Shown: positions 2,533 to 9,920 of the stretch, one piece after another | Position numbering within the stretch: the stretch's first letter is position 1 | How the letters are laid out: each line of letters starts with the position of its first letter | Origin: a virus | Taxonomy: Duplodnaviria > Heunggongvirae > Uroviricota > Caudoviricetes | IMG/VR virus record: IMGVR_UViG_2671180283_000021 | Length of the DNA: 9,920 nt | Reading direction: 5' to 3' (one strand) | The notes under the pieces: model-generated | Seen by the model: only the letters and a program-made list of their open reading frames with translations | What the model was told of the DNA's origin: nothing | Database searches by the model: none | Program-made: the position numbers and the translations under genes

Positions 2533-2713
2533 CAGGACTGAGGCCTTTCTGAAACTGGTATCCACGTCTGCGGTAATTCTGAATCAGCCACTCGGCCTGT
2601 TCTTCAGTGCATTGGTCATGCTGGTACCAGTCATATTTGAATGCGTGAGAGCGCCGTCCGTGTCTGCTGGCAGGGTCGGCATCAGAATTGTGGTGTTTGG
2701 TATTGTGCGCCAT
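2533..2713 (-). pseudogene. Possible 3'-truncated ORF remnant interrupted by the IS66 insertion (unknown protein)
   Basis: A minus-strand frame with a plausible ATG at 2713 (MAHNTKHHNSDADPASRHGRRSHAFKYDWYQHDQCTEEQAEWLIQNYRRRGYQF...) runs directly into the IS66 inverted repeat at 2532. The supplied longer ORF (to 2794) begins at a TTG inside a terminator T-tract and is unlikely to be real. No family recognised. Confidence 0.3.
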
Positions 2714-2883: not shown

Positions 2884-3762
2884 TCAGACTGCAAGATCCA
2901 AGGGAAGATCAGAAATATCCTTTAATCTTTTACCATTAACCATCACGGAAAGCATGTCAGCTGCATCGCTGAGCCCCAGTATTTCAACTGCTGATATAAG
3001 TTCATAAAGCGCAAAATGATACACGCAATCTATATCACCAGTACCAAGAGCAATAGACGCCAGACGACTTGGAGTAGGCTCAGCAGTAACAACCATTACA
3101 TGAGGGAGATTTCCCTTACGGTTGCGAATAAGATTTAATGCCTCAGAACGAGCATTCTGGGCCCGGTCGCTTCTTATTGTCCATTTGCAGGAAATACTTG
3201 CGTGTAATATTGGTTTCCCACCATTCGAACTCCTGAGAGCTGACATGCGGGTAACAGAATCATCCACCAGTAATTCAGGACTGTTGATAACTTGATCACA
3301 TTCAGGTTCTCTTTCAACAATAATATCTGGTGAAATCGTATAATCACTCCCCAGTGCAGCAGCTAGCTGAGGATTACTTTTTGCAGCACTATCCAATGCT
3401 ATAAGATGGGCATATTGTTCATATTTAGCTATCTCTAATCTGTTTCTACCAGAAACCTGATGTACATTCCATTTTCCAGGGCGTAAGTGGCTGAGTTTAA
3501 AAAAGGTTTTTTCTATAAACTCTGCGCAGATACTCTCAAACTGATTACCAGATGTTTGCCCTGCAACACGTTCACCAATCGTTTCAGCCTGCAAGAAGCG
3601 AGCAATTTCTCTTGCTATAGCTTTACTGTTTTTGTTACTGCTATCTGCGTTACTAACAACTCCGGCAGTATTAATTGTGAGCGTATTCAGTAACAATTGG
3701 GCATGAAACTCCTTTCTGGCTTCAGCAAAACCAACTATGCTGTCAACCAAATCTCCATTCAT
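2884..3762 (-). CDS. Putative type II restriction endonuclease (PD-(D/E)xK fold), partner of the adjacent C5-methyltransferase
   Basis: Lies immediately downstream of the methyltransferase. The ATG at 3762 is 13 nt after the methyltransferase stop and is preceded by AGGAAA. Candidate catalytic motifs are SPDIIVERE and SCK, with a Glu 14 residues after the Lys, a spacing I recall from the Cfr10I/NgoMIV-like family. The supplied ORF extends to 3897 but that portion overlaps the methyltransferase by 122 nt. Confidence 0.6.
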   Translation of the reverse strand: MNGDLVDSIVGFAEARKEFHAQLLLNTLTINTAGVVSNADSSNKNSKAIAREIARFLQAETIGERVAGQTSGNQFESICAEFIEKTFFKLSHLRPGKWNVHQVSGRNRLEIAKYEQYAHLIALDSAAKSNPQLAAALGSDYTISPDIIVEREPECDQVINSPELLVDDSVTRMSALRSSNGGKPILHASISCKWTIRSDRAQNARSEALNLIRNRKGNLPHVMVVTAEPTPSRLASIALGTGDIDCVYHFALYELISAVEILGLSDAADMLSVMVNGKRLKDISDLPLDLAV

Positions 3763-3775
3763 TTCTGGATTTCCT

Positions 3776-4900
3776 TCAGGCTGCTTGACTATTCTTACTG
3801 ATGTTATTCTTATACCGTCCCTGCAAAACTCCATACACATATTGTGCGATTTTTGCTGCAAATAGCGGTGGAACAGCATTCCCGATCTGCTTTGCAATCT
3901 CAGTTTTTGAACCGGTAAAAATGAAATTATCAGGAAAAGACATTAATCTCGCTGCCTCACGATGAGTTATTGGCCGATCCTCTTCCGGATGTAAATATCG
4001 CCCTTTCTCCGGTTTGAAAAACTCAGTACGAATCGTTACTGAAGGTCTGTCCCACCACAGACGTCCAAACAAATCGGTCCCTCCAGATTTCTTTTTTAGC
4101 CAGCACGCCGGGGTTATATCAGGTCTTTTTTTCTGTAAATCGAAACGGTTACCTCCTGGTGGAACCGCTTTATATCGCTCCAGAGAAACAGGTGTGGGAT
4201 TACGCCCAAAATGTAAGTTCAGCGGAGGAAGTTCATTACGAATATCAGTTCCAACAGGAGCAGGTAAGTCACCAATTGCATCACGCGTACAGACCCATTC
4301 AGGCAAAGCGACATCCTTATCAGGGGAACGATGCGTTGGTGCTGGCGGGAACGCCGGAATACTATGCACATCGAAGAGTTCTCGTTTGATACCGATTGCT
4401 ATCGTTCGTTTTCTTGTCTGAGGTACTCCATAGTCAGCAGTATTCAACACCATTGGATTAAGCAGAATAAAGCCCATGGATTTCGCTCTAAACGTAATGT
4501 CCGCAAACTCATCGCTTATCAGCAATCCGGGGACATTTTCCATGACGAACATACAAGCCCTTGAACGCTCAATGACATCCATATAAGGCTCCCACAATGC
4601 TCTTCGGTGATCACCATAACGATTCTTATTCAATAAACTGAATCCCTGACACGGGGGGCCACCTATGACCACATCAGCCTCAGGAACAGTATTGCTGGAT
4701 GCCCACTCCTCAATATTTGCCTGAACTCCATGCAAACCAAAATTGGCATTGTAGGTATTTATAGCTGCAGCATTATTATCAATAGCAAGGATACTTTCAA
4801 AGTAGTCAGACATCTCTCCATGAAGAAAACCATAAGATAATCCACCTGCCCCACAAAAGAGGTCTATCACTCTGAATTTATTTAATTCTTTCATCCGCAT
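3776..4900 (-). CDS. DNA (cytosine-5)-methyltransferase
   Basis: 374 aa with canonical C5-MTase motifs: motif I FCGAGGLSYGF, motif IV GGPPCQGFS, motif VI ENVPGL, motif X QIGNAVPP. RBS GAGG lies 7 nt upstream of the ATG at 4900. Confidence 0.92.
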   Translation of the reverse strand: MRMKELNKFRVIDLFCGAGGLSYGFLHGEMSDYFESILAIDNNAAAINTYNANFGLHGVQANIEEWASSNTVPEADVVIGGPPCQGFSLLNKNRYGDHRRALWEPYMDVIERSRACMFVMENVPGLLISDEFADITFRAKSMGFILLNPMVLNTADYGVPQTRKRTIAIGIKRELFDVHSIPAFPPAPTHRSPDKDVALPEWVCTRDAIGDLPAPVGTDIRNELPPLNLHFGRNPTPVSLERYKAVPPGGNRFDLQKKRPDITPACWLKKKSGGTDLFGRLWWDRPSVTIRTEFFKPEKGRYLHPEEDRPITHREAARLMSFPDNFIFTGSKTEIAKQIGNAVPPLFAAKIAQYVYGVLQGRYKNNISKNSQAA

Positions 4901-4983
4901 CCATATGCCTCAGATTAATGTTGAGCGTCTTACAGGACGCGTAATGTTAACTGGGGCTTTCTCTATCTGCCTTTTGGTGTTCA

Positions 4984-5008
4984 TGCCTGAGGCAGACAGC
5001 CTCAGGCA
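4984..5008. other. Perfect 9-bp-stem hairpin (TGCCTGAGG-N7-CCTCAGGCA) in the QueH/methyltransferase intergenic region
   Basis: Inverted repeat read directly from the sequence, with no adjacent U-tract on either strand. Possibly a weak terminator for the QueH-like gene or a regulatory structure. Confidence 0.35.
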
Positions 5009-5078
5009 CCCGCAGCAATTCTACTTAACTCACGTCACCTCGCCAATATGAAATCAATCAGAAAGGTGATCCATAAAA

Positions 5079-5765
5079 TCACTCCTTCTCTTCTTTTCCG
5101 TAGTGGAGTTGGCCAATTTTGATAAGAGGGCGTCCCTGAGATTTGCGGTGTAGATTGGTATCGCGCAGAGAATACACACAGCCACAATATTCCTGCTGAT
5201 AGAATTTTTCGCGCTTGCTGATTTCAATCATACGGGACGAGCCGCCCTGCTTGCGCCAGTTATAATCCCAGTACACCATACCCGGATAATGCGCAACAGC
5301 TCGCCGCCCACACTCGTTAATCTGCTGCATATTTTTCCAGCGTGAAATGCCCAGTGAACTGCTGATCACACTGAAACCATTTTCAGCAGCGTACAACGCT
5401 GTCCGCTCAAAACGCATGTCAAAACACATGGTACAACGGATCCCCCTCTCAGGCTCCCATTCCATTCCTTTGGCACGTTCAAACCAGTTGTCGGTGTCGT
5501 AATCAGCATCGATAAACGGCACGCCGTGTTGTTCAGCAAAGCGAATATTTTCATCCTTACGAATTAAATACTCTTTCTGAGGATGAATGTTCGGGTTGTA
5601 GAAAAAGATGGTGTAGTCGATTCCCGAGGCCTGAAGCGCCTCCATCACTTCACCGGAACATGGAGCACAGCAAGAGTGCAGTAGTAGTTTGTTTGCCCCG
5701 TTTGGGAGCTCCAATTTAGGCCGTTTGAAATCAGCAATAGTCATAAATATTTTTATTGGGGTCAT
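5079..5765 (-). CDS. queH: QueH-like protein (DUF208 family; epoxyqueuosine reductase QueH homolog)
   Basis: 228 aa. N-terminal motif [11 protein letters not shown] plus further conserved Cys (RCTMCF, EYCGCVY), consistent with the Fe-S cluster ligands of DUF208/QueH as I recall them. No clear SD at either candidate start (5765 or 5744). Confidence 0.6.
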
Positions 5766-5918
5766 GAAAATAGCACAGAGTGTAGCATCAGAGCAGGGCT
5801 ATCGGGAATATATGTCTAAATCTGGTAATATCTGGTTTTGACGCAAAGCGGACAACCACGCTGGCTCTACCCTGCGCCATGAAAATGTCAATTCACATCT
5901 GAACTAATGCTCTTTAAT

Positions 5919-6344
5919 CTAGTAACGTCTAAAATACCTAACATTTCCTTGATAAAATGCCAGTACACGCTGCATAGCTTCGCTCTTCCGGCACTCGCGA
6001 CAGATTATGTTTAGGCGCCTGTCGTAGCGGCGTATTTCGCCGTCTGGTAATAGCCAGATAAGGTCCGGATCAACCACAGATGGTTTCTTCAGCTTTGCCC
6101 TTGAGAGTTTTTTGCGGGCGTTTTGCCAGTCCTTGCGCGCCTGCTCAGACGGGAATACTCCGTAACCGGAATTGTAAACATCACCACTGGCGGCCAGCTC
6201 CATGCATAAACGACCGACAGACGCATGACTGACACCAATTTCATCCGATAACTGCCGAATCGTGCCTCGTCCGTTAAGGCGTACGAATTCCACGATCAGC
6301 CCTTTAATTTTTTCCCGCTCTTCTTGTGTAAAAACTTTTGCCAC
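5919..6344 (-). CDS. Hypothetical protein with N-terminal winged-helix/HTH-like segment and basic C-terminus
   Basis: 141 aa with a GTG start at 6344 preceded by a strong SD (CAGGAGGG, 4-nt spacer). HTH-like segment GTIRQLSDEIGVSHASVGRLCMELAASGDV. C-terminal CRECRK and basic residues. No family recognised. Confidence 0.45.
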   Translation of the reverse strand: MAKVFTQEEREKIKGLIVEFVRLNGRGTIRQLSDEIGVSHASVGRLCMELAASGDVYNSGYGVFPSEQARKDWQNARKKLSRAKLKKPSVVDPDLIWLLPDGEIRRYDRRLNIICRECRKSEAMQRVLAFYQGNVRYFRRY

Positions 6345-6384
6345 AAGCCCTCCTGAAAATTACCTCATGACCAGAAATTAACAC

Positions 6385-7347
6385 TTACCCCCTGAAGCCC
6401 GGCGGAATTTCAGTGTCCGGTTCAGAAATGTGATTCACGCAACGCTGCGCAGGTGAACGCCCCAGGCGGATAACCAGTTCATCCCATTTTTCCCGGAGTT
6501 TTGCCGGACTCATGATGTTTTTTACCCAGAACGAATCCCGCTGGAGACGCCCAAACATTTCACAAATTTGTCTGTGAGTTCTGCCATCCAGCATCCGCAT
6601 TGTGCGAACGTCATTGGCCCATGCTGTCCAGTTGGGTTCTTTCGGTCTAGTGATCTCGCCATCATCGCTGGCCGCCTGCTCGTAAAGACTCACGATTCGT
6701 CCCCAGATCCACTGTGCGCACACCAAATCTTCCTGACTTCCCCACTGGCGTTTTTTCGCACTGAACACAACCGCGTCAGGGTGTCGGGTTAAAAAATCCT
6801 GTTCAGCCATCTGCGGGTCCGGTTGCGAAGCGTCCGGACAAGAAGATCTTTTATCTGACGGATCAGGTTTTAATACTGACGGATCGGGGTCAATCATCGC
6901 CCCCCTAATCGGCAGTTTTTTATCAACAGTTGATCCATCAAAATTTAACGGGTCAACCGTTGAGGGGTCAATATTTGACGGGTCAACTGTTAACGGGTCA
7001 TTTTTTGCCGGGCTAATTTTTCTTTTCGGTTTATATGACTCACGCGCCGCCGCCGCAGCTGCTTCGAGTTTTTCCACATTAAGCCGATAGATATTGCTTA
7101 CATTACGCCCACCGACCTTACGCTCTTCCTTCGTCAGCCAGCCCTCTTTCGCCAGTTCTGCAATAGCCGATTTCACTGTGGATTCACTTCTTGCACCGAT
7201 CTGACGCCGGATAGTTTCAATGGCAGGCCATGACACGCCCTCGTCATTGCTGTAGTCTGCAAGACGGGCCATAACCGCCACCCTGGATAAGATCATGCCG
7301 GTGAAGGCGCACCCTTCCCAGACAAGACCATGAAGCTTGCTGCTCAT
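6385..7347 (-). CDS. Phage replication initiation protein: N-terminal HTH (HTH_36-like), pentapeptide-repeat linker, C-terminal DnaT-like domain
   Basis: Preferred start is the ATG at 7347, preceded by GGGGG; the supplied ORF begins at a GTG at 7362. The N-terminus (VSWPAIETIRRQIGARSESTVKSAIAELAKEGWLTKEE) resembles the replication-initiator wHTH. The C-terminus (...VNHISEPDTEIPPGFRG) closely matches what I recall of the E. coli DnaT C-terminus (...SEPDSQIPPGFRG). Internal xxVDP repeats are encoded by the iterons. Confidence 0.7.
   Translation of the reverse strand: MSSKLHGLVWEGCAFTGMILSRVAVMARLADYSNDEGVSWPAIETIRRQIGARSESTVKSAIAELAKEGWLTKEERKVGGRNVSNIYRLNVEKLEAAAAAARESYKPKRKISPAKNDPLTVDPSNIDPSTVDPLNFDGSTVDKKLPIRGAMIDPDPSVLKPDPSDKRSSCPDASQPDPQMAEQDFLTRHPDAVVFSAKKRQWGSQEDLVCAQWIWGRIVSLYEQAASDDGEITRPKEPNWTAWANDVRTMRMLDGRTHRQICEMFGRLQRDSFWVKNIMSPAKLREKWDELVIRLGRSPAQRCVNHISEPDTEIPPGFRG
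6855..7040. repeat. Putative origin of replication inside the rep gene: direct repeats, four tandem 15-bp iterons and an AT-rich tract
   Basis: CTGACGGATC occurs twice (6855..6864 and 6876..6885). Four tandem 15-bp units run from 6947 to 7006 (AACGGGTCAACCGTT, GAGGGGTCAATATTT, GACGGGTCAACTGTT, AACGGGTCATTTTTT), with the core (C/G)GGGTCA at a 15-bp period. They are followed by an AT-rich stretch (TTTTTTGCCGGGCTAATTTTTCTTTTCGGTTTATAT). The layout resembles lambda ori within gene O. Confidence 0.6.
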
Positions 7348-7369
7348 AAAACCCCCGAACACCGTGCTT

Positions 7370-7795
7370 TTAGTGCATCACCACAGCATTCCCTGCCGGG
7401 CCGCCGCGATTCATCTGGTCATACAAAACAACCGCTGACGCAACAAAATCATCGACATCCTTCACCAGCCGATCCCTCCGTTCGACGATCTCACGGTAAT
7501 ATTCAGAACTGTGGCTGCGCATACGGGCCACCAGCAAAGGCGGCATCGCCTTTTCGATCGCCGGTAACAGAGCCTGCATTTTTTCAACAGCATCAGGGGT
7601 GTCTTTATCCAGCCAACGGAAAATTTTCTGGGTATTACGGGCCAGGGCTTCCGGATGGCTGTCGTCGTACAGTTCAGGGAACGTCATCCCCAGTTCGAAA
7701 TAAGTCCGGGCTATTTCAGCTGCAGGAACTTTCTCACCATCAGGGTATGCCCAGGCATTCATCGCCATGCGGATGTGCTCATGTTTGATTTTCAT
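7370..7795 (-). CDS. ydaT: YdaT-like protein (Rac prophage YdaT family; CII-like regulator, historically annotated as putative toxin)
   Basis: 141 aa with N-terminus MKIKHEHI, matching my recollection of E. coli K-12 YdaT. Lies immediately downstream of the YdaS-like gene, overlapping it by 17 nt. Confidence 0.75.
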   Translation of the reverse strand: MKIKHEHIRMAMNAWAYPDGEKVPAAEIARTYFELGMTFPELYDDSHPEALARNTQKIFRWLDKDTPDAVEKMQALLPAIEKAMPPLLVARMRSHSSEYYREIVERRDRLVKDVDDFVASAVVLYDQMNRGGPAGNAVVMH

Positions 7796-8102
7796 GAATC
7801 ATTTGCCTCTTGATGCTTCGGGTATGATCGTTTTCGTCATTTGGTTGCTTCATCGACATATTCTGCGAATAACATGACGAGCGTCGTAAGTATGTCCAAT
7901 CAACATCAGGACGAAGTTCTTCACACAGGACACCACCTTTTGTTGCTCGTTCAATCGCAGGACATCTCTCAGCAGGTAACTGACGTACACCTTTGATCCA
8001 TTGATTTACGCTTGGAGGAGATACACCTAAAAGCCTAGCCATTGCTGATTGCCCACCGACAACAGCACAAGCTCGTTTGAATGAATAGTTATCTTTTTTC
8101 AT
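7779..8102 (-). CDS. ydaS: YdaS-like Cro-type HTH regulator
   Basis: Sequence MKKDNYSFKRACAVVGGQSAMARLLGVSPPSVNQWIKGVRQLP is a Cro/CI-type HTH. Preferred start is the ATG at 8102, with GGAG 8 nt upstream; the supplied ORF starts at a GTG at 8123. Divergent from the repressor gene. Confidence 0.8.
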   Translation of the reverse strand: MKKDNYSFKRACAVVGGQSAMARLLGVSPPSVNQWIKGVRQLPAERCPAIERATKGGVLCEELRPDVDWTYLRRSSCYSQNMSMKQPNDENDHTRSIKRQMIHENQT

Positions 8103-8129
8103 CGAATGAACTCCAAAAAACACGCAACA

Positions 8130-8226: not shown

Positions 8227-8703
8227 ATGCTTAGTGGTAAAGACTTAGGCCGAGCGATAGAGCAGGCCATTAACAAAAAAATTGCATCAGGAGCCGTCAA
8301 ATCAAAGGCGGAAATCGCACGTCATTTCAAAGTCCAACCACCATCAATCCATGACTGGATTAAGAAAGGTTCGATAAGTAAAGACAAACTTCCAGAACTA
8401 TGGCGTTTCTTTTCTGATGTGGTTGGTCCAGAGCATTGGGGGCTTAACGAATACCCCATACCAACCCCATCCACTTCAGATACAAAAAGTGAACTTTTAG
8501 ACATAAACAGCCTTTATCAAGCCGCCTCTGATGAAAAAAGAGCAATTGTGGCTTTCATCTTATCTGGAAATGCTACGGAGCCTAGTTGGGTTGATCATGA
8601 CGTTCGCGCCTACATTGCCGCAATGGAAATGAAGGTAGCTAACTATCTGAAAAATCAAGAATCAAAACGGAAAAGCCAGAACATCACCAAGACAGGAACT
8701 TAA
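8227..8703 (+). CDS. racR: RacR-like prophage repressor (XRE/CI-type HTH)
   Basis: 158 aa, with an HTH segment (SKAEIARHFKVQPPSIHDWIKKG). Divergent from the ydaS/ydaT-like genes, with operators on both flanks. Length and synteny match Rac prophage racR; the symbol is assigned by context, not by sequence identity. Confidence 0.7.
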   Translation: MLSGKDLGRAIEQAINKKIASGAVKSKAEIARHFKVQPPSIHDWIKKGSISKDKLPELWRFFSDVVGPEHWGLNEYPIPTPSTSDTKSELLDINSLYQAASDEKRAIVAFILSGNATEPSWVDHDVRAYIAAMEMKVANYLKNQESKRKSQNITKTGT

Positions 8704-8840: not shown

Positions 8841-9021
8841 TTTCCCATACCAACCCATCCCGTCCCACACAATACAGGGCAATACCTCGAGTTACCAGGC
8901 AGTGGTCAGGGGTTAAGTAGCCAGCCCGAGGCGTAAGAACATGACGGCAGGGTTCAACTTTAATAACTATGCAGCAGGTTTTTGTTCCGCTACCCCGGCG
9001 TTAAGGGGAAATGAGGTCAGC

Positions 9022-9174
9022 ATGGATACTATCGAGCTTGGCAACAACGAATCTCTGGTATGCGGCGTGTTTCCCAACCAGGACGGCACGTTTACCGCGA
9101 TGACATATACCAGAAGCAAAACGTTTAAAACTGAAGCTGGCGCGCGTCGCTGGTTAACCAGAAACACTGACTGA
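9022..9174 (+). CDS. Small hypothetical protein (Rac-region YdaF/YdaG-like position)
   Basis: About 50 aa from the ATG at 9022, with GAGG 5 nt upstream (MDTIELGNNESLVCGVFPNQDGTFTAMTYTRSKTFKTEAGARRWL...). The supplied ORF offers an alternative ATG at 8941 (77 aa). Its stop overlaps the next ORF. Confidence 0.4.
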   Translation: MDTIELGNNESLVCGVFPNQDGTFTAMTYTRSKTFKTEAGARRWLTRNTD

Positions 9175-9185
9175 TGAGGTTGACG

Positions 9186-9506
9186 ATGGAATTTAAAGAT
9201 TTACCAGTACCATTCCAGGAAATGGCATCGAATGTGGTTCGCTCTCAACTGGCGACTCTTGACCTGAGTACCGTAGAAAAAGAAACCATCGACAATATAT
9301 CCGGTAACGTACGCCGAGCCTTTATCGGGCTGTACGAAGAGAAGCAGCTCTCTGATAACCAGGATTTACATGAAAAATACTTCCTGGATCTAATGGACAT
9401 CATTGATAAGGGGTTTGGCTTGTTAATGAAAAAGAAAGGGATTCGAATAGAACCCCTTGAAAATTACTTTGCAACAAAAAGCATTAATTCTTTTGATTCA
9501 AAATAA
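9186..9506 (+). CDS. Hypothetical protein (AT-rich accessory gene)
   Basis: 106 aa from the ATG at 9186, with GAGG 5 nt upstream; an alternative ATG at 9174 overlaps the previous stop. AT-rich codon usage. No recognisable motif. Confidence 0.45.
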   Translation: MEFKDLPVPFQEMASNVVRSQLATLDLSTVEKETIDNISGNVRRAFIGLYEEKQLSDNQDLHEKYFLDLMDIIDKGFGLLMKKKGIRIEPLENYFATKSINSFDSK

Positions 9507-9759
9507 GAGAATTAATTACAGACTTAACATGCTCTTTCTCATGATTGAAGCTCTCATGATTGAAAGTGCCGGGTTGAAGCGAGTCGATATAATCAACAAG
9601 ACTCTGTCGTACGACTTCATTTTTATCCATAACAGATGCAAGAAATGAAATTGCTAAAAGAGTTATATCACTACGCGCCGCAGCATGTTGCAATGCTTTA
9701 TCAAAATTATTAATCTGGCGTATCAGGGAGTTAATGATTTCATCATTTTCAGTCGACAT
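9484..9759 (-). CDS. Hypothetical protein, convergent with and 3'-overlapping the 9186..9506 gene
   Basis: About 91 aa from the ATG at 9759, preceded by a strong SD (AGGAGGG, 4-nt spacer). The supplied ORF extends to 9837 without an RBS. AT-rich. No family recognised. Confidence 0.45.
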   Translation of the reverse strand: MSTENDEIINSLIRQINNFDKALQHAAARSDITLLAISFLASVMDKNEVVRQSLVDYIDSLQPGTFNHESFNHEKEHVKSVINSLILNQKN

Positions 9760-9920
9760 TTCACCCTCCTGAGGGTTGGTGATTAAGGAGTTCTCCACGG
9801 GTGAGGTGGAGTGCGTGCGCCGGACACGGGTGAGCATCCGGCACTGACAGTTTACTGAAAGGATATTTCCCTGAAAAGTCAGACCATAACGCGAAAGCGC
9901 ACGGCGAGGTAGCTGGTTCA

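Follow-up and report, generated by a model that had tools for sequence, protein, structure and literature searches.

The window, a 9,920-nucleotide stretch of DNA from a virus assigned to Caudoviricetes (IMG/VR record IMGVR_UViG_2671180283_000021), carries a gene that probably encodes a functional QueH, the B12-independent epoxyqueuosine reductase. We estimate a probability of roughly 70% that this gene is active in this sense and is carried as a moron, where it likely frees the lysogen or the induced phage from cobalamin for the completion of queuosine (Q) in tRNA. The predicted enzyme would act on position 34 of tRNA-Asp, -Asn, -His and -Tyr, where it would convert epoxyqueuosine (oQ) to Q. 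In QueH, a [4Fe-4S] cluster and a neighboring iron, not cobalamin, serve to turn the epoxide into the cyclopentene at this tRNA position, and E. coli does not synthesize cobalamin de novo. Most likely, a prophage-borne QueH would therefore complete Q-tRNA for the lysogen or the induced phage when cobalamin is scarce. The comparisons described below establish family membership, ligand conservation, fold, prophage and plasmid location, purifying selection and co-occurrence with queG, whereas enzymatic activity, B12-independence in E. coli, transcription from an own promoter in the lysogen and any fitness benefit for the carrier are inferred.

The same step of Q synthesis can be catalyzed by QueG, which is cobalamin- and [4Fe-4S]-dependent and differs from QueH with its iron-sulfur and iron chemistry. 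According to Zallot et al. (2017, ACS Chem Biol), duf208 genes of several bacteria reportedly complement the Q deficiency of an E. coli queG mutant, recombinant QueH is said to have been obtained with no cobalamin detected in it, and Acinetobacter baylyi is reportedly among the few organisms that possess both enzymes. In E. coli and Salmonella, the QueG step is cobalamin-dependent according to a passage of PMC4646009 that cites Frey et al. 1988, and the deletion of queG had no effect on growth in one condition (PMC11841063). QueG (YjeS; PMC4646009) and QueH would carry out the same reaction on the same tRNAs in the same cells, but the two proteins share no sequence or fold relationship, and a Pfam search of the window protein revealed no QueG-type domains.

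The gene is encoded on the minus strand, and two forms of its reading frame have to be distinguished:

5079-5765, minus strand: longest queH ORF in the ORF list, 228 amino acids
5079-5744, minus strand: probable queH coding sequence, 221 amino acids, starting at the second ATG

The longer frame is present exactly as a previous reading of the sequence alone (hereafter the sequence-only reading) had described it, which had not stated the strand. It contains two in-frame ATGs, at positions 5765 and 5744. In the alignment with plasmid-borne queH copies, only the second ATG is conserved and the codon at the position of the first one specifies Ile or Leu. These data point to position 5744 as the likely true start and thus to a coding sequence of 5079-5744, which matches the 666-nt (221-aa) form called by RefSeq. 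A Shine-Dalgarno (SD) sequence precedes neither ATG, in agreement with the sequence-only reading: the best match to AGGAGG within 20 nt upstream comprised 2 of 6 positions, and an SD was also absent from every mobile queH copy that was compared.

The only Pfam match of the ORF was PF02677 (QueH, formerly DUF208), with an E-value of 4.8e-66 and a score of 222.6 bits at a gathering cutoff of 23.5 bits. The match extends over profile positions 1-174 of 175 and over residues 27-201 of the window protein, which has short N- and C-terminal extensions compared with the 175-position domain. Since the profile is matched at full length and far above the cutoff, a chance ORF can be discounted. The HSCCAPC motif occupies residues 30-36, and further cysteines are located at C111/C114 (CTMC) and C194/C196 (CGC) in addition to the lone C152. 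By sequence, the solved relatives of the protein were restricted to Thermotoga maritima QueH and its mutants, with PDB entry 7lc5 as the best match (E-value 5.5e-22). In T. maritima QueH, the [4Fe-4S] cluster and the iron next to it are held by six cysteines; Li et al. (2021) reportedly established which cysteine binds which metal. The residues C9, C10, C87, C90, C169 and C171 of this enzyme align with C32, C33, C111, C114, C194 and C196 of the window protein, and all six positions were invariant in 18 of 18 QueH family sequences sampled from gammaproteobacteria, Staphylococcus, Listeria, gut metagenomes and Thermotoga. The conservation of the cysteine ligands and the DUF208 profile match, both of which the sequence-only reading had proposed as checks of its family assignment, thus support that assignment.

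One residue of the motif differs from the T. maritima enzyme, as Cys36 of the window protein aligns with Asp13, the active-site residue that is replaced in the D13N mutant of T. maritima QueH (PDB 9dco). A cysteine at this position was also found in all 16 other non-Thermotoga sequences of the sample. The family-typical motif is H[ST]CCA[PA]CS, with Thermotoga as the exception among the 18 sequences, and a reading of Cys36 as a sign of divergence was dismissed because cysteine is the family norm.

An AlphaFold2 model of the window protein, computed with an alignment of 30 sequences, reached a pLDDT of 77 and a pTM of 0.78. When this model was compared to the PDB by Foldseek, the top five matches were T. 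maritima QueH entries (E-value 1.6e-11), onto which it superimposed with a TM-score of 0.86 (normalized to the target) and an rmsd of 2.4 Å. The next fold match after QueH was TtuA with an about million-fold weaker E-value (5.6e-5), and the weaker matches were generic enzymes of the adenine-nucleotide alpha-hydrolase type such as TtuA and argininosuccinate synthetase. A search of the NCBIfam models gave no match for the window protein, as no QueH model there reached its threshold. The window protein thus resembles the T. maritima enzyme (7lc5, 7lc7, 9deu) in its full-length domain, the six aligned cysteines and the predicted fold. Together, sequence and structure model confirm the ORF as a genuine and, judging by these features, intact member of the QueH family, as the sequence-only reading had suspected. 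Its alternative proposal, a diverged DUF208 protein with another role, is unlikely given the 80-87% amino acid identity to chromosomal QueH proteins of Enterobacterales and the housekeeping neighborhood of the gene in Providencia.

The genes upstream of queH define the genomic setting:

5919-6344, minus strand: DUF977 or YdaW-like (Ren-like) gene, Pfam DUF977 with 99 bits, PHROG 142
6385-7362, minus strand: O-like replication initiator, identified by profile match
7370-7795, minus strand: YdaT-like gene, identified by profile match
7779-8123, minus strand: YdaS/Cro-like gene, identified by profile match
8227-8703, divergent from the ydaS side: RacR-like repressor, RacR annotation taken from a related prophage

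Judged by its gene content, this region is the immunity and early-right part of a Rac-like lambdoid prophage. The queH gene is located on the same strand as the ydaS-ydaT-O-like-DUF977 series and directly downstream of DUF977, which was also the upstream neighbor of queH in 79 of 80 IMG/VR loci. Where E. coli chromosomes with this gene are annotated, it resides inside complete prophages that are integrated beside ompW and carry an integrase, an excisionase, an exonuclease, a Q antiterminator, lysis genes and a terminase. Both the RacR-like, YdaS, YdaT, O-like and DUF977 genes of the window and these annotated loci bear out the earlier view that queH is prophage-borne.

On its other side, queH adjoins a region of variable content:

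4831-5011, minus strand: 5' part of hok/sok, Rfam sok RF01794 with 61 bits (gathering score 59)
3776-4900, minus strand: Dcm-type C5 cytosine methylase, Pfam DNA_methylase with 184.6 bits
2884-3897, minus strand: ORF of an NgoMIV-family endonuclease, Pfam match with 422 bits
31-2447, minus strand: complete IS66-family element with three ORFs, tnpA (2022-2447), tnpB (1675-2025) and tnpC (31-1644)

The methylase and the endonuclease form a type II R-M pair that is prophage cargo (2884-4900, minus strand). The real start of the endonuclease is probably later than the start of the ORF, because its domain begins at residue 64 and RefSeq calls an 879-nt gene. The alignment to RF01794 decays after position ~4908, so that hok/sok is cut off near 4907, and the similarity to an O104:H4 prophage, which has hokD at this spot, stops at position 4907 as well. 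Other related prophages also contain hokD/mokW here. The remnant of hok/sok includes a hairpin at 5007-4985, and its effective similarity covers 4907-5078. By these boundaries, the R-M module has replaced the hokD toxin gene and left behind an orphan leader/sok segment. Of the 80 IMG/VR loci, 55 had HokD and 21 had the Dcm module immediately downstream of queH, and queH thus occupies a fixed slot adjoining a variable cargo site. The adjacent hok/sok segment was found in 3947 E. coli genomes, compared with 995 genomes that contain queH. The gaps that flank queH measure 153 nt upstream and 178 nt downstream, the latter being the stretch in which Rfam detects the 5' part of hok/sok.

Homologs of the prophage gene are widespread. 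At a nucleotide identity of ≥90%, queH was detected in 995 of 5426 complete E. coli genomes (~18%), among them O104:H4 and ST131 strains, and almost all of these copies were chromosomal. Essentially full-length copies (≥80% coverage) accounted for 985 of the 995, and 707 were ≥99% identical to the allele in the window. The corresponding RefSeq protein, WP_000150294.1, is already named “epoxyqueuosine reductase QueH” and differs from the window allele solely by I149V. At least 190 IMG/VR contigs contain queH, and a copy with 94.7% identity, annotated as hypothetical, is present in the isolated phage HannyBb. In the PHROGs database, queH corresponds to phrog_3217 (458 bits), which is listed under “unknown function”. 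The profile of this group matches the window protein only from residue 41 onwards and hence lacks the CCAPC motif, which suggests mis-called starts in phage records and probably explains why queH is missed by phage pipelines.

Plasmids are a further vehicle of the gene. A tblastn search identified queH on 302 plasmids, including 99 from Klebsiella and 67 from Escherichia; the list of matches also contained 32 Ligilactobacillus and 48 Bacillus records. Three plasmids were inspected (NZ_CP040995.1, NZ_CP024167.1 and NZ_CP075593.1), on which queH showed 88-95% protein identity. They represent a conjugative IncF plasmid of Klebsiella, a conjugative IncFII plasmid of Salmonella and a mobilizable IncFIA/IncR plasmid of Klebsiella, and the respective neighborhoods of queH were unrelated to each other (repA; fecC/fecE; a CBASS-like/NACHT/dGTPase cluster). 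The separate chromosomal gene queG was present in all 5426 complete E. coli genomes, in line with the earlier statement that E. coli-type hosts use QueG. Therefore, every E. coli strain that carries queH has both enzymes.

Outside E. coli, the nearest proteins were QueH of Erwinia, Providencia, Proteus, Photorhabdus, Gibbsiella and other genera with 80-87% identity. In the Providencia chromosome, queH is located among tmcA, purC, bamC and dapA, and the Photorhabdus gene also resides in a non-phage chromosomal setting. The window copy thus resembles the chromosomal QueH of Providencia, Proteus, Photorhabdus and Erwinia, but differs from known QueH in being prophage-borne (and plasmid-borne in other genera) and in occurring in a host that already has QueG. 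The nucleotide similarity to the Providencia and Photorhabdus copies amounts to 76-78% and is limited to the coding sequence, so that the prophage gene is a captured bacterial queH lacking its native flanks; a capture together with native flanking DNA was ruled out, as the similarity to these loci ends at the coding sequence. By this evidence, the prophage gene is a captured housekeeping gene whose source was a queH on the chromosome of some other enterobacterial lineage (Enterobacterales).

The mobile copies also bear the signature of selection. The dN/dS ratio of the window allele was 0.077 in comparison with HannyBb, 0.057 with the Salmonella plasmid copy and 0.026 with a Klebsiella plasmid copy, and dS among the mobile queH alleles reached up to 0.3-1.5. 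Ratios this low indicate that mobile queH is under strong purifying selection, and they are inconsistent with a decaying passenger.

The features upstream of the start codon, which bear on how the gene may be expressed, are as follows:

5745-5840, minus strand: upstream segment that moves with queH according to BLASTN, ~65-96 nt, an AU-rich leader without an SD
5787-5779, minus strand: candidate extended -10 element TGCTACACT (TGnTAnAnT), 34-35 nt upstream of the conserved ATG
5808-5799, minus strand: conserved block TTCCCGATAG, kept in 5 of 6 mobile queH copies

In BLASTN comparisons with the plasmid loci, the similarity to the window extends from 96 nt (NZ_CP024167.1) or 65 nt (NZ_CP040995.1) ahead of the conserved ATG to a point 4-7 nt beyond the queH stop codon. 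Prophage, phage and IncF plasmid copies have the upstream segment in common. The -10-like element is retained in each of the six mobile copies that were aligned, reading TGCTAAAAT at the same spacing in the most diverged plasmid copy, and based on this conservation TGCTACACT may be an extended -10 promoter. The block TTCCCGATAG lies upstream of this candidate, in the position of a -35 element, and is unlike TTGACA; it could be a regulator site. A consensus scan of the queH strand from DUF977 to the R-M module found no sigma-70 promoter, which we attribute to the weak -35, and no intrinsic terminator. Consequently, read-through from the early-right operon is possible. An Rfam scan of the queH leader yielded no riboswitch or other RNA family, the sole match being the downstream sok/hok, and the folding stability of the leader was not unusual (z = -0.83). 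Taken together, the conserved upstream sequence makes an autonomous expression of queH plausible.

The main alternative is that a true QueH serves the phage, being transcribed only through the early-right (pR-type) operon after induction or infection, providing Q-tRNA for phage translation and remaining silent in the prophage. The position of the gene fits such lytic-only expression, because queH immediately follows the ydaS-ydaT-O-like-DUF977 series in the same orientation, no terminator-like site separates it from these genes, DUF977 precedes it in nearly all loci (79 of 80), and no promoter emerged from the consensus scan. However, IncF plasmids carry the cassette too, including its upstream 65-96 nt, in unrelated neighborhoods where no phage operon could drive queH, and the extended -10-like element 34-35 nt upstream of the start is kept in all copies. 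Moreover, the gaps of 153 nt and 178 nt around the gene are typical of morons and not of tightly packed operon genes, and the long-lived tRNA pool would leave a modification enzyme little time to act in a lytic cycle. We regard an exclusively lytic role as unlikely. Even less credible is a neutral passenger, that is, a recently captured bacterial gene that has no current function and hitch-hikes with successful prophages. Gene content makes queH fully redundant with queG, no queH phenotype is known, and the 707 of 995 E. coli copies that are almost identical to the window allele would fit a recent spread. Against this stand the dN/dS values of 0.03-0.08 at a dS of up to 0.3-1.5, which imply long-term purifying selection while the gene was mobile, as well as the 985 full-length copies among 995, the independent retention of queH on plasmids of three genera and the intactness of all catalytic cysteines.

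The QueH fold could also have been recruited for another substrate, such as 7-deazaguanine in phage DNA, or for defense or counter-defense. Phages do use preQ0-derived bases in their DNA (PMC6884629), an R-M pair adjoins queH in the window, and one of the plasmid contexts is a defense cluster. Nevertheless, this explanation is very improbable as well. The protein is 80-87% identical to housekeeping QueH, and neither DpdA/TGT-like genes nor genes of preQ0 synthesis (queC/D/E) were found among the ORFs of the window or the annotated prophage genes. The genes downstream of queH vary (hokD in 55, R-M in 21 loci), so that no fixed partner exists on this side, and the remaining inspected plasmid contexts are unrelated to defense. 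A catalogued defense role of QueH was ruled out, as PADLOC gave no match.

The preferred reading, a functional QueH carried as a moron, is compatible with the lysogenic-conversion trait that the sequence-only reading had envisaged. Such a conversion is a possibility favored indirectly by the strong purifying selection, the carriage by both phages and plasmids, and the conservation of a promoter-like element that accompanies queH in its transfers. According to the scenario that we propose, queH was captured from the chromosome of another Enterobacterales member and now moves as a minimal cassette, which consists of the coding sequence and the ~65-96 nt in front of it. The E. coli cassette occupies a slot in the early-right part of Rac-like lambdoid prophages, with the DUF977 gene on one side and the variable cargo site on the other, and IncF plasmids of Klebsiella and Salmonella carry the same cassette. 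A broader version of this scenario, in which a self-contained, promoter-bearing queH cassette frees Q completion from cobalamin and reaches QueG-bearing Enterobacteriaceae (E. coli, Klebsiella, Salmonella) by way of temperate phages and IncF plasmids, is tentative, and we rate it at somewhat below even odds. Selection for queH might come from B12-poor niches. Alternatively, and this is pure speculation, it might stem from the loss of BtuB, the importer of B12 that phages and colicins also use as a receptor.

With regard to other phage-borne functions, queH resembles the morons of lambdoid phages in that it is a bacterial-type gene between phage modules, has long flanking gaps, is variably present and lies beside hok/sok and R-M cargo. 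It differs from them in that its cargo is a tRNA-modification enzyme instead of a toxin, an exclusion function or a surface modification, and in that its own promoter is only a candidate. The 7-deazaguanine gene sets of phages (FolE, QueC/D/E, DpdA) belong to the same metabolic neighborhood as queH, but they modify phage DNA and require the transglycosylase DpdA, which the window prophage lacks. In their survey of queuosine-pathway genes in phages, Hutinet et al. (2019) found neither QueA nor QueG nor QueH among the viruses under study (PMC6884629), and our full-text literature searches retrieved no paper that links queH with E. coli prophages or enterobacterial plasmids. The identification of the protein as such is not new, because RefSeq already annotates QueH in ~1000 genomes. 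While the enzyme is thus known and named, its mobile vehicle and its redundancy with QueG are little appreciated. A prophage-borne queH is mechanistically unsurprising and represents an ordinary enzyme in a little-discussed location.

If the cassette reading is true, phages and plasmids would convert the tRNA-modification state of their hosts, and about one in five E. coli strains would differ from K-12 in the B12 response of their Q/oQ status. Provided that queH is expressed, a mobile element would determine how strains differ in the Q and oQ content of their tRNA when cobalamin is limiting. This would be a simple and testable case of horizontal transfer that tunes the translation apparatus, and it would offer a handle on whether the step from oQ to Q matters physiologically.

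The remaining parts of the window illustrate the composite structure of the prophage. At one end, the IS66 element terminates near position 2533, having inserted ~350 nt downstream of the restriction gene, and the matches to related prophages begin at window position 2533-2534. None of the complete E. coli genomes searched contained the whole arrangement of the window in one piece. In the replication region, the O-like gene is directly followed by DUF977 (6345-7362), as in the O104:H4 prophage, whereas in the otherwise similar CEA106S prophage (12832-14368 of that locus) the two are separated by genes for a DnaC-like ATPase and a DUF1627 protein. Since these additional genes are absent from the window, the replication module is mosaic. 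At the other end, a DUF1391 gene (8941-9174, plus strand) and two ORFs that gave no Pfam match (9174-9506, plus strand; 9484-9837, minus strand) sit beyond the repressor, where related prophages hold dicB-type genes.
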